Shown here piece by piece: positions 17,311-61,511 of a stretch of 64,000 nt of DNA. The position numbers were made by a program, and so were the translations under genes. The stretch lies in contig OZ024745.1 of the NCBI GenBank assembly GCA_964016885.1, positions 55,490,001 through 55,554,000 on the forward strand. Reading direction: 5' to 3'. Below the pieces are notes generated by a model that saw only the letters and a list, made by a program, of their open reading frames with translations, was not told the DNA's origin and ran no database searches. The stretch is from Eledone cirrhosa (Eukaryota). Positions within the stretch are counted from its first letter, which is position 1, and every line of letters starts with the position of its first letter.

Positions 17311-19519
17311 ACGGAGGAAATGTGGTAAGGAACCAGGTGGACCATAACGCACCACAGTACTCAATACGTAGGGTAGTAGAGTGGGTAATAGGAACGAGTA
17401 GGACCCCGACGGCTGAGCTCAAGCCGTTTCGACGGCTAATTCTGGACTAAATGAAAATGTTTATCTTGGTATTTGAATAGCCGAGCTTCTCAAGGGGTAA
17501 TTCCATATATGGTCAAAGTGGTTGTCACAAGGATTGGTCAAAAGTTTGTTGTTGAGACATAATAATTCTATGATGGCAATTTGTGGAGGGAAGGGGTAGC
17601 TAAACCTGCCAGTAGGAGAAAGAGGGAGAGGGGTGGAGGAGACCCATTCATGCGTTGATAGTGCCGACTACAGCTTGGCATGAGGTCAAAGAAGATACAA
17701 GGGAGCGGGAGGGGGAGGAAGTCGAAACAATAAGTAGAACAATAAGGGGTAAATATATAGAAAAATACTGAGAGTGTTAAAAAGCAATTAAATGTAAAAA
17801 AAAACAAAATAAAAACATTTCTGGTTACTACGTCCTAAGTCTCTCACTGGTACTGCTAGGCTAAACAAATGTACTAGGTGGGACGGAATTATAATGAGAC
17901 CCTTTTAAGAGGTATAAGTAATAAACCGAGTTATCTTACGGTGACGGGTCAACAAGTGAGGGGCCAAAATACTAAAGAAACTACCACGAAATAATAAATA
18001 AAGGTTTCTACCCCAGGCACAATGCCAGCAACCACCCAGTGCAAAAAAGTAAACTAATACAAAATAATAATTCAGAGTCCCGAAAAAGAATACTAATACT
18101 ATCTCTAAGGGTGCCGCCACGATACAAAAGTTCTAGTGCAAGCTACATAAAAGCTCGTACGAAGTAAATGTAAAATTAGATACAGAAGATTAATTCAGAA
18201 TCCCCCCCCCCCAAAAAAAAATACTGATAAACGAGAAATTAAAGCAAATATACCACTAAGAAATATAGAAAGCACGGAAAAGGGGCAGCGGTCGGATAAG
18301 AGGGTAAGTATCCGGGGTCTAACGCATCTGCTATGAAAAGCGGAGTCGGCCAAATCTATCATATAAAGGGGAAGGGGGTGGGGGTACTGAGGCTACAAAG
18401 GACCGAGGGGCTGCCTCGGGTGGTCGGGAACAAGACGATGACAAAGAAAGAGAACTGGGGTGGAAGGACTAGGGAGGGATGGCGGGAAAAAGGAAATATA
18501 GAGGAAGCGATAAAAAGATATAAAAGAAGATCTTACGTCTACTTTAGCAAGCAGGGGTTACCCATTACAAAATCGACAAGTGGGGTGTTATAGCCCTATT
18601 CTACCCCTCCACCCCCGGGTCATTATGGGGTTTGAGGGCGAGGTAAGTCCTACGCAATCTGTGTTTACATGCAGTAACCAGTTCATCTTTCTTGTTTAGG
18701 AGTTGGTCCGTCGAAAACAACATTTGTAAAGTTTCCTCCGAGCATAAATTGCACGGACGGCGTCCTCCCGTGTAAGAGTTGGCTCTGGACATTAATCTCC
18801 AAGTGAGATCATAGGTAATGTTGTTATCCTTGAGGTCCCATATGTGGCCCGAATGTGTAGTGGCGTGTCGCCGGGTCGGGTTTCGGAAGGTACGTCTGTG
18901 TTGGTATAGCCGGGTCTTGAAGTCAGATGCGGTTAATCCTATATAAGCTTTGTTGGAGGTGTCCGTCCTCACGTTGCACTGGTAGATCACATTACGATCT
19001 CTGCATCTGTTGTCGAGGGGGCAAATGGATCCATCAGGACAGTTGCACCTCCTGGTCGGCTCTCCACTGCTATTTAGGTTATTTCTTCCATAGGGGTTGA
19101 GTTTTTTGTTGTTAGAGGAGACGATGTTTTGTGCAAAGTTTGGTGTAGTGCTGTAAGAGAGTTTGATGGTATTTTTGTTAATTATGTTGTGGTAGCGATG
19201 TTGTAGTGGGAAGTGTTTTTCAATGAGCCTAAAGAAGATTTTCCCGATACCTCGGCGTTGTGGGGGAGGATTGAACCATGTTACATTGCGTGAGCGGCGG
19301 TGTCGCCTGCTAGTTCCGCTAATGGGGGCTGGACAGTAGGATATTTCCTCCCGGAAAACACTGCGCTTGAGGGCCTGGATGTAATAAGGTCCCTGTTCAT
19401 CGAATATCTGCTCATTAGCTGACAAACGGGATATGCGGAGGGAGATGTTTTTAACCAGGTTATTGGTGATGTTCCTAGGATGGTTTGATCGGCGGTGGAT
19501 GTAGTGCAGGTTGTCGTTA
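17311..19519 (-). mobile_element. Penelope-like element (Naiad-type), left arm of a 4.4-kb inverted pair
   Basis: Reverse complement of 19563-21697 plus a longer 3' tail. ORF 18601-19519 encodes RT thumb and GIY-YIG, with a small deletion near WFNPP. Confidence 0.92.
17403..17498 (-). ncRNA. Type I hammerhead ribozyme, family A (U3-A8 core UUGAGAA)
   Basis: Stem I ACCCC/GGGGT, core TTGAGAA, stem II G..CGGCTA/TAGCCG..C with long loop, GAAA, stem III ACGGCT/AGCCGT, GTC cleavage triplet. Confidence 0.75.
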
Positions 19520-20526
19520 CCCTCGACCTCGATGATGATCTGTACTACCCATACAGGAAACCTAACGACAACCTGCACTACATCCACCGCCGGTCAAACC
19601 ATCCTAGGAACATCACCAATAACCTGGTTAAAAACATCTCCCTCCGCATATCCCGTTTGTCAGCTAATGAGCAGATATTCGATGAACATGCGCCTTATTA
19701 CAACCAGGCCCTCAAGCGGAGTGTTTTCCGGGAGGAAATATCCTACTGTCCAGCCCTCATTAGCGGAACCAGCAGGCGACACCACCGCTCACGCAATGTA
19801 ACATGGTTCAATCCTCCCCACAACGCCGAGGTGACAACTCCTATCGGGAAAATCTTCTTTAGGCTCATTGAAAAACACTTCCCACTACAACACCGCTACC
19901 ACAACATAATTAACAAAAATACCATCAAACTCTCTTACAGCACTACACCAAACTTTGCACAAAACATCGTCTCCTCTAACAACAAAAAACTCAACCCCTA
20001 TGGAAGAAATAACCTAAATAGCAGTGGAGAGCCGACCAGGAGGTGCAACTGTCCTGATGGATCCATTTGCCTCCTCGACAACAGATGCAGAGATCGTAAT
20101 GTGATCTACCAGTGCAACGTGATGACGGACACCTCCAACAAAGCTTATATAGGATTAACCGCATCTGACTTCAAGACCCGGCTATACCAACACAGACGTA
20201 CCTTCCGAAACCCGGCCCGGCGACACGCCACTACACATTCGGGCCACATATGGGACCTCAAGGATAACAACATTACCTATGATCTCACTTGGAGATTACT
20301 GTCCAGAGCCAACTCTTACACGGGAGGACGCCGTCCGTGCAATTTATGCTCGGAGGAAACTTTACAAATGCTGTTTTCGACGTACCAACTCCTAAACAAG
20401 AAAGATGAACTGGTTACTGCATGTAAACACAGATTGCGTAGGACTTACCTCGCCCTCAAACCCCATAATGACCCGGGGGTGGAGGGGTCGACTAGGGCTA
20501 TAACACCCCACTTGCCGATTTTGTAA
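19495..20526 (+). CDS. Penelope-like RT thumb plus GIY-YIG endonuclease (open frame, no ATG start)
   Basis: VTLDL...YYPYRKPND, SNHP, WFNPP, KLSYS, CNC-CxLD-C, VIYQC...AYIGLT..FKTR..QH, CNLC..E, LLNKKDEL..CKH. Confidence 0.85.
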   Translation: MDVVQVVVTLDLDDDLYYPYRKPNDNLHYIHRRSNHPRNITNNLVKNISLRISRLSANEQIFDEHAPYYNQALKRSVFREEISYCPALISGTSRRHHRSRNVTWFNPPHNAEVTTPIGKIFFRLIEKHFPLQHRYHNIINKNTIKLSYSTTPNFAQNIVSSNNKKLNPYGRNNLNSSGEPTRRCNCPDGSICLLDNRCRDRNVIYQCNVMTDTSNKAYIGLTASDFKTRLYQHRRTFRNPARRHATTHSGHIWDLKDNNITYDLTWRLLSRANSYTGGRRPCNLCSEETLQMLFSTYQLLNKKDELVTACKHRLRRTYLALKPHNDPGVEGSTRAITPHLPIL

Positions 20527-21697
20527 TTGGTAACCCCTGCTTGCTAAAGTAGACGTAAGATCTTCTTTTATATCTTTTTATCGCTTCCTCTATATTTCCT
20601 TCTCCCCCCATCCCTCCCTAGTCCTTCCACACCAGTTCTCTTTCTTTGTCGTCGTCTTTTTCTCGCCCACCCGAGGCAGCCCCTCGGTCCTTTGTAGCCT
20701 GAGTACCCCCACCCCCTTCCCCTATTCTATGATAGATTTGGTCGACTCCGCTTCTTATAGCAGATGCGTTAGACCCCGGATACTTACCCTCTTATCCGAC
20801 CGCTGCCCCTTTTCCGTGCTTTCTATATTTCTTAGTGGTATATTTGCTTTAATTTCTCTTTTATCAGTATTTTTTTTTGGGGGGGGGATTCTTAATTAAT
20901 CTCCCGTATGTAATTTTACATTTACTTCGTACGAGCTTTTATGTAGCTTGCACTAGAACTTTTGTATCGTGGCGGCACCCTTAGAGATAGTATTAGTATT
21001 CTTTTTCGGGACTCTGAATTATTATTTCGTATTAGTTTACTTTTTTGCACTGGGTGGTTGCTGGTATTGTGCCTGGGGTAGAAACCTTTATTTATTATTT
21101 CGTGGTAGTTTCTTTAGTATTTTGGCCCCTCACTTGTTGACCCGTCACCGTAAGATAACTCGGTTTATTACTTATACCTCTTAAAAGGGTCTCATTATAA
21201 TTCCGTCCCATCTAGTATATTTTTTTAGCCTAGCAGTACCAGTGCGAGACTTAGGACGTAGTAACCAGAAATTGTTTATTTTTTTTTTTTTACATTTAAT
21301 TGCTTTTTAACACTCTAAGTATTTTTCTGTATATTTACCCCTTATTGTTCTACTTATTGTTTCGACTTCCTCCCCTTGCCGCTCCCTGGTATCTTCTTTG
21401 ACCTCATGCCCAGCTGTAGTCGGCACTATCAACGCATGAATGGGTCTCCTCCACCCCTCTCCCTCTTTCTCCTACTGGCAGGTTTAGCTACCCCTTCCCT
21501 CCACAAATTGCCATCATAGAATTATTAAGTCTCAACAACAAACTTTTGACCAATCCTTGTGACAACCACTTTGACGATATATGGAACTACACCTTGAGAA
21601 GCTCGACTATTCAAATACCAAGATAAATATTTTCATTTAGTCCAGAATTAGCCGTCGAAACGGCTTGAGCTCAGCCGTCGGGGTCCTACTCGTTCCT
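19515..21697 (+). mobile_element. Penelope-like element (Naiad-type), right arm, 5'-truncated, with ~1.1-kb 3' region ending in a hammerhead motif
   Basis: ORF and 3' region as described in adjacent entries. Ends ttcct(at)n. Confidence 0.92.
21589..21684 (+). ncRNA. Type I hammerhead ribozyme, family A (single mismatches in stems I and II)
   Basis: ACACC-TTGAGAA(21594-21600)...GAAA(21657-21660)-CGGCT-tgagctc-AGCC-GTC(21677-21679)-GGGGT. Confidence 0.7.
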
Positions 21698-60971: not shown

Positions 60972-61059
60972 ATATATATATATATATATATATATATATA
61001 TTTATATGTATGTATATATATATGTATGTATGTGCATGTGTGTGTCTGTATGTATATAT

Positions 61060-61511
61060 AACAAAGGAATTGTGGTAAGGAACCAGATGGACCATAACGC
61101 ACCAGAGTATTCAATACTTAGGTTAGTAGAGTGGGAAATAGGAAAAAGTATGACCCCGACGGCAGAGCTCAAGCCGTTTCGACGGCTATTTCTGGACTAA
61201 ATTAGAATTTTTAGCCTGGTGAATAAATAGCCGAACTTGTCAAGGGGGTATTTCCTTATATGGAAGATTGTAGTTGTCAGGAGGATTGGTTAACATTTGA
61301 TGTAAACACAAATAAGTCTATCATGGCATTTGGTGGGAGGTAGGGGTGGCTGAACTTGCCTGTAGAACAATAGGGGGGTGAGTGGAGTCGGGCAAACGTT
61401 GAAAGTGATATGTATACAGCAGATTCTAAGGATAGAATCTGCTGTATACAATCACTTTCAACGCTTGACCGACTCCACTTGAGCTCTGCCGTCGGGGTCA
61501 TAGTTTTTCCT
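61060..61511. mobile_element. Family A variant: minus copy with full hammerhead, fold-back 61381-61479, then ribozyme 3' end on plus
   Basis: Direct reading; flanked by (TA)n. Confidence 0.85.
61153..61249 (-). ncRNA. Type I hammerhead ribozyme, family A variant (core UUGACAA)
   Basis: CCCC-TTGACAA-GTTCGGCTATTT...GGCTAAA/TTTAGTC...AAATAGCCGTC-GAAA-CGGC..GCC-GTC-GGGG. Confidence 0.78.

Follow-up and report, generated by a model that had tools for sequence, protein, structure and literature searches.

The question raised by this locus is how insertions of a transposable element come to lie in a genome as mirror-image pairs. The stretch analysed here, hereafter the window, comprises 64,000 nucleotides (nt) of the 3.0-Gb genome of Eledone cirrhosa (assembly GCA_964016885.1, contig OZ024745.1, positions 55,490,001 to 55,554,000), and carries insertions associated with (TA)n runs that fall into six families, A to F, of which family A is a Penelope-like element (PLE). 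PLEs are the sister group of telomerase reverse transcriptases (RTs), and an inverted structure together with a tail are their hallmarks. The junctions described below lead us to regard it as probable that, in forming a head-to-head insertion, the two ends of a break each start cDNA synthesis at a fixed internal position of one and the same capped element RNA.

A preliminary description of the window had listed 11 inverted pairs and four family B arrays. Sequence reading, self-BLAST and mapping agreed that all 15 are head-to-head pairs of Penelope-like elements with their 3' ends outward. Mapped on natural reference copies, each has its antisense arm on the left and its sense arm on the right, the orientation being based on the open reading frame (ORF) for families A and F, on visually identified hammerhead cores for B, C and E, and on the tandem and tail layout only for D. 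In the largest pair, which belongs to family A, the left arm (17311..19519, minus strand, reference 1327-3502) has a long (L) 3' end at 17311 and the right arm (19515..21699, plus strand, reference 1279-3425) a short (S) one; the arms overlap by 5 nt at 19515-19519, and on the 5' side the S arm extends beyond the L arm by 48 nt. The right arm holds the 3' half of an RT/GIY-YIG ORF (19519..20475, plus strand) with 94% identity to an intact copy, P0001, found elsewhere.

P0001 encodes a single ORF of 703 amino acids (aa) with YRDD, RWR at 16, DKT at 96, CNCPDGSIC at 551, CNLC at 649, CKH at 677 and a C-terminal VIY..IG (VIY..YIG in the window copy), thus matching the RWK-like and DKT motifs, the CxCx5C linker, and the CxxC and CxH motifs in the endonuclease (EN) that mark the Hydra clade. 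Judged by these motifs, family A is an EN-containing (EN+) PLE of that clade. The Neptune clade was considered and rejected, as the linker is CxCx5C, whereas that clade is defined by a CX2-5CxxC linker and a CCHH motif; no Pfam family matched the ORFs. Full-length units measure 3.45-3.54 kb and are preceded by a partial copy ending in the tail, and a full unit behind a pseudo-long terminal repeat (pLTR), plus tail, was seen at seven ORF-bearing loci, so that the partial tandems forming pLTRs, the inverted 5'-truncated copy and the one-sided tail of EN+ PLEs are all present. Related ORFs occur in family F (53% identity to P0001) and in a fragment at 46142 (36-45%). The 3' region of family A, within the pLTR, contains a predicted type I hammerhead with a U3:A8 core (17404..17497, with others at 22513-22604 and 61154-61247, all on the minus strand), a variant that has been described (PMC4209133). 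Candidate cores were read by eye in B, C and E and no ribozyme was located in D or F. A strict hammerhead scan matched family A only, plus one spurious match, an Rfam scan gave no hammerhead among the 150 of 167 matches listed, only spurious sub-threshold miRNA-type ones, and folding of the ribozyme regions was not significant (z-scores -0.4 to -1.9).

The preliminary description held that nearly every insertion is paired, which is an overstatement. About 15 of 19 insertions in the window are paired. For family A the paired share is at least 24 of 39 in 24 arbitrary 50-kb blocks (1.2 Mb), 36/51 at motif hits and 27/40 at ORF-bearing loci; given the unpaired copies in the window and these fractions outside it, "most" is the appropriate word. 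Counted with short references, the paired fractions were 25/43 for A, 4/16 for B, 12/18 for C, 0/7 for D, 3/4 for E and 8/30 for F, all of them lower bounds, as short references overlook distant partners; tail-to-tail neighbours split by a TA run were undetectable in this count. From the block and motif-hit counts, clusters without a 3' end had been removed beforehand, as had matches at reference 2750-2845 that belong to an unrelated short repeat; a 3' untranslated stretch of about 50 nt in this region (reference 2781-2830; window 30607-30664) matches a different and very common short repeat. Two of the blocks, B07 and B20 (L101-L105, L166-L170), contained neither a (TA)6 run nor a family A match. 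Genome-wide, about 3,970 centres at a single motif are head-to-head, with both arms reaching the fixed 5' base discussed below, against none for the reversed control; pairing is therefore not a matter of chance, and random orientation is refuted at family level.

The two outer ends of a pair are not alike. The preliminary description had noted that one arm is usually long and the other short; at the 3' end the difference is a tail of about 77 nt in A, 54 nt in C and 87 nt in F. One L and one S end occur at 14 of the 15 window loci, in 21 of 21 long family A pairs, in 53 of 53 classed family A pairs from blocks and motif hits, in 11 of 12 pairs of C, in 7 of 8 of F, and in 3 of 4 block pairs and 4 of 4 window arrays of B; the rule holds in six families. 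Short family A pairs numbered 88, from loci that had been selected through their centre or a motif or, in some cases, through one end or the ORF; of these pairs 81 were L+S, three L/L, one S/S and three unclassed. These are counts from selected loci and not genome-wide frequencies. Independent choice of sites would yield at most one half. The rare like-ended pairs (L306, L309, L236:1107, and the window L/L pair at 58462..58732, whose tails differ at two sites variable between subfamilies) tend to differ in arm haplotype and are possibly products of two RNAs or recombinants.

It had also been stated that 3' ends always face (TA)n while 5' ends meet in the middle. The outward orientation of 3' ends stands at all 15 loci. 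Outer 3' edges touch (TA)n in 137 of 170 cases (57 of 68 in family A), and outer 5' edges do so in 31 of 66, so that a 5' end need not have a partner opposite. At the S end a TA overlap of 2-4 nt is present in A, B, C and F and absent in D and E. The proposal that self-complementarity of (TA)n underlies priming from both ends is not required by the data, given these two families and the inverted pLTRs of Adineta, which carry a one-sided tail and are flanked by target duplications of 9-10 bp (PMC3846280).

The arms of a pair are also unusually similar to each other. In long pairs, 15 overlaps measure 350 nt or more; there the arms diverge by 1.1-4.2%, and, ranked against 29-55 copies, each arm had its partner as the nearest copy in seven overlaps and among the nearest three in six. 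The large window pair differs at 49 of 1,958 sites, with 39 private changes, 17 shared rare variants and two discordant polymorphic sites. In short pairs, where at least 11 family A haplotypes can be distinguished, the arms match in 52 of 59 assignable L+S pairs (22 were unassigned) against 16% in permutations, and their mean edit distance is 2.4 against 5.39 when permuted (minimum 4.8 in 2,000 permutations). A pair thus carries one haplotype, and a single RNA molecule as the template of both arms is strongly suggested by this and by the agreement of the arms on their 5' end (below), sibling RNAs of one locus being a less likely alternative.

One haplotype on both arms, and the same 5' end, would follow automatically if a single cDNA folded back, was copied as far as S and was then joined by its free end to the other side of the break. 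Such snap-back or hairpin sealing, offered by the preliminary description beside priming from both break ends, would require the S arm to lie within the L arm. Of the 27 paired ORF-bearing loci, six without one intact 3' end were set aside; among the remaining 21 long pairs the arms are nested in six, as snap-back predicts, and in 15 the S arm reaches further 5'. In 7 of 53 L+S pairs, moreover, the arms share essentially no sequence, the L arm stopping at or beyond the S site. S itself coincides with a kind of fixed internal start that the RT of another PLE uses in vitro (PMC11167929). Fold-back is thus an improbable source of these pairs. The test that had been proposed, by which two templates would indicate twin priming and identical arms snap-back, is misleading, because the arms share one haplotype and yet snap-back fits poorly: arms of one haplotype behave as two first-strand cDNAs.

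Priming from both break ends, which is supported by the L+S rule and by non-nesting, gains further support from the 5' ends. Short family A arms end at reference 3361-3369, on the A in TTAGT or within a few bases on its upstream side, a hot spot that lies about 40 nt upstream of the hammerhead cut site and whose motif we take to be initiator-like. In the window this A, the +1 base and putative transcription start, is at 21639 (plus strand), placed there from short-arm ends genome-wide that carry an extra G. The base at -1 is T or C in all 103 arms that continue upstream and G in 24 of 99 arms that stop at the hot spot; genome-wide (n=14,305) it is G in 2,366 and T in 9,154 cases, some of these G possibly deriving from the partner arm. 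In subfamily A2, G was found on both arms at 127 sites, and C on both, as a control, at eight. A hand count of the first 50 of 352 family F sites gave 16 with G on both arms, 15 with a single G or C, none with C on both, one with G plus one base, 12 extended, three without a spacer, one with a single A or T and two others; long family F arms have T at -1. Both arms can thus bear an extra G ahead of the fixed 5' base. A genomic subfamily whose -1 base is G was ruled out, as none of the 103 long arms has G there, and hammerhead cleavage was rejected as the cause of the hot spot, the arms spanning a cut site that lies downstream of it. Untemplated G in L1 and SVA insertions has been attributed to a copied RNA cap (PMC4859970), and here the G likewise suggests run-off at the capped start of an RNA begun inside the pLTR, although an RT that adds C at any RNA end would leave the same mark.

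Several alternatives meet difficulty at this point. Under snap-back, the extra terminal base on both arms, with 0-5 nt between them, would be hard to prime by folding back. Self-priming on an antisense RNA, the published reading of head-to-head palindromes in Adineta Penelope elements (PMC3846280), would have to accommodate an extra G at the sense 5' end, behind the initiator-like motif, on both arms and in two families, as well as outer ends that are both fixed sense 3' sites at (TA)n; we consider it very improbable here. A stronger competitor, though still unlikely in our judgement, invokes two RNAs of one source locus, held by an asymmetric dimer, primed at L and S and joined head to head. 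It would account for G on both arms, non-nesting and the shared haplotype, needs no strand displacement, and finds a parallel in the few L/L and S/S pairs, which differ in haplotype in three of four cases (the window pair in its tails) and indicate that two-template products or recombination do occur. It would, however, demand that, with at least 11 haplotypes present, both RNAs stem from the same locus, and the strict L+S rule would require an additional asymmetry. It would further require equal 5' ends. In 302 pairs both arms were of the cap class in 127, both were extended in 171 and four were mixed, where about 148 mixed pairs are expected from the arm totals; arms thus agree on their 5' end, while among 20 loci of each class three haplotypes are common to both.

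The centres of the pairs point to the joining of two ends. Among 27 long-pair centres there are 16 overlaps of 1-6 nt, possibly inflated by the ends of BLAST alignments, two blunt joints and nine inserts of 2-34 nt, two of which contain 8 nt copied from nearby, and short-pair centres contain local duplications. These joints presumably resemble polymerase-theta-type end joining. Tight centres as such would also suit snap-back, whereas templated inserts are typical of two joined ends. That the pairs are fold-back library chimeras or randomly oriented copies is a possibility already refuted at the level of the families and to be dismissed almost entirely. Chimeras are excluded because the arms diverge, with private changes in the large pair, and because their ends are unequal; the genome-wide excess of centres over the control and similar joints in Illumina-derived data speak against artefact as well. 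Contigs under the same species label and raw Illumina reads contain the joints, read ends at the hot spot and G between the two sides, although the best short-read sample may be the assembly's own, and no short-read record spanned the window's own centre at 19515.

Taken together, these observations fit the following course of events. The GIY-YIG domain would cut both target strands, after which one break end would prime at S and the other about 77 nt downstream at L, the two starts plausibly corresponding to the two subunits of a dimer. Both cDNAs would copy the same stretch, and therefore one must displace the other. In long arms the cDNAs would stop at random, and in the very common palindromes of about 200 bp they would continue to the end of the template, the capped 5' terminus of an RNA whose start lies within the pLTR. 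The 3' ends of the cDNAs would then be joined by host end joining, and each joined cDNA would template the second strand of the other. We lean slightly towards the broader view that these elements normally integrate by such asymmetric twin priming on a single capped RNA, which would give inverted pLTRs, the one-sided tail and second-strand synthesis a single cause.

A number of points weigh against this interpretation. Roughly 30-40% of insertions are unpaired, and copying one stretch twice would require strand displacement. Two of the 15 long overlaps (L043 and L068) show no special closeness of the arms, and 7 of 59 short pairs differ by one base at the haplotype. Arms could also have become non-nested afterwards, through deletions that removed sequence from one side of a palindrome centre. 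Agreeing 5' ends would likewise be expected from two RNAs of a single source locus if the start is specific to that locus, and one haplotype is confined to the extended class (7/20 against 0/20), although dropping its 35% share still leaves about 120 mixed pairs expected where four were seen; the spacer windows for the three 5'-end patterns were, in addition, unequal in total length. Finally, the start site and the cap are deduced from DNA alone.

The other insertions in the window follow the same plan, with exceptions. Between 21690 and 23300 four A and E insertions adjoin in one TA tract, which suggests repeated re-targeting; mapping delimits the family A pairs at 21729..21881 (L/S) and 22497..23188 (S/L) and the family E pair at 21906..22362 (L/S). 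Further family A pairs mapped at 60787..60970 (S/L) and 61061..61513 (L/S). Family B forms head-to-head arrays, placed by mapping at 23308..24796, a tandem array (L/S), 26202..27748 (L/S), 33824..34526 (S/L) and 51931..52546 (L/S); at 23300-24800 and 26190-27750 it shows a tandem unit of about 500 nt with a minimal hammerhead and internal TA runs and is retrozyme-like. The family C pairs (both S/L) lie at 26058..26171, from sequence, self-BLAST and mapping, and at 32066..32631, with a palindrome core of 99.6%, from self-BLAST and mapping. Two loci proved longer than first described: mapping extends the family F pair (S/L) from 49126 to 49354, its L tail occupying 49263-49354, and the family D locus starting at 32761 reaches 33730 as a partial tandem, sequence, self-BLAST and mapping giving 32759..33730 for an inverted S arm, a pLTR with tail and then a tandem unit. 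Four copies are unpaired or nearly so: the partial third Penelope-like ORF, with TA runs on either side (46142..47034, plus strand; no inverted partner by self-BLAST), a family A L arm with a fold of about 20 nt at its 5' side only (47330..47492, plus strand; self-BLAST and mapping), a lone family C S arm flanked on both sides by (TA)n (49406..49654, minus strand; mapping), and a 5'-truncated family F copy with part of the ORF and an S end (about 58781..60772, plus strand). To the left of the large pair, self-BLAST revealed an old imperfect palindrome (16950-17221, 66%) partially matching 15906-16045. The window also holds an uninterrupted frame of 1,204 aa for the endonuclease and RT of a long interspersed nuclear element (LINE) at 41794-45408, which is not linked to (TA)n and has related copies at 38485-40922 and inverted copies at 4496-10259 by self-BLAST, and another LINE-like family, with (ATT)n/(AAT)n runs at its edges, at 34680-36560 and 5409-6553 (94% alike).

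The layout itself is not new. The preliminary description already stated that PLEs often have inverted terminal copies. Craig et al. (2021) describe, for PLEs in general, an inverted copy with a truncated 5' end and a tail that is frequently confined to one of the two ends, as well as (TA)n targeting, and call the origin of the structure "undefined" (PMC8557442). Because this layout is ordinary for the class, the value of the present data lies in the mechanism and not in the observation; what appears to be new is the junction evidence for overlapping twin priming, next to new members of the Hydra clade. Our literature search, covering material other than subscription papers and supplements, found no paper that traces the inverted structure to twin priming on a single RNA. 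The junction statistics condense into one model with sharp predictions, namely a shared RNA template for the arms, an L end on one side opposite an S end on the other, and run-off at a capped pLTR start, which are directly testable in an existing in vitro system.

Compared with the Hydra-clade EN+ PLEs as described there (PMC8557442), family A shares the C-terminal GIY-YIG domain, the clade motifs, the hammerhead and (TA)n targets, whereas its tail is longer than their 30-40 nt and its unit of 3.5 kb exceeds their length of less than 3 kb. With PAc, the Poseidon protein of Anolis studied in vitro by Frangieh et al. (2024), both strands are cut and extended, the RT has two internal start points that delimit the tail, and the protein is predicted to form a dimer (PMC11167929). 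Hammerhead cleavage was not needed there, nor is it here, because the arms span the cut site. In the parts consulted, that account did not connect its pair of starts with the opposite ends of a single break and left inverted copies unexplained; it reported no homology at the start site, whereas four of six families here show the TA overlap (PMC11167929). The Penelope elements of Adineta vaga (Arkhipova et al., 2013) resemble ours in that head-to-head copies are most frequent, a tail is optional on one inverted pLTR and the pLTR has an initiator-like motif, and the antisense self-priming proposed for them is disfavoured by the data here (PMC3846280). The closest mechanistic parallel is L1 twin priming, in which two primers at one break use one RNA (Ostertag and Kazazian, 2001, as summarized in PMC11702581); one break, microhomology or end joining and an extra G attributed to the cap are common ground (PMC11702581; PMC4859970). 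L1 cDNAs, however, copy adjacent, non-overlapping parts of the RNA and their second start is opportunistic (PMC11702581), a description that suits only 7 of our 53 pairs, so that L1-type twin priming proper was rejected as the same process while working alike. In the elements studied here neither start is opportunistic: each is fixed, one stretch usually serves as template twice, and pairs result more often than not.

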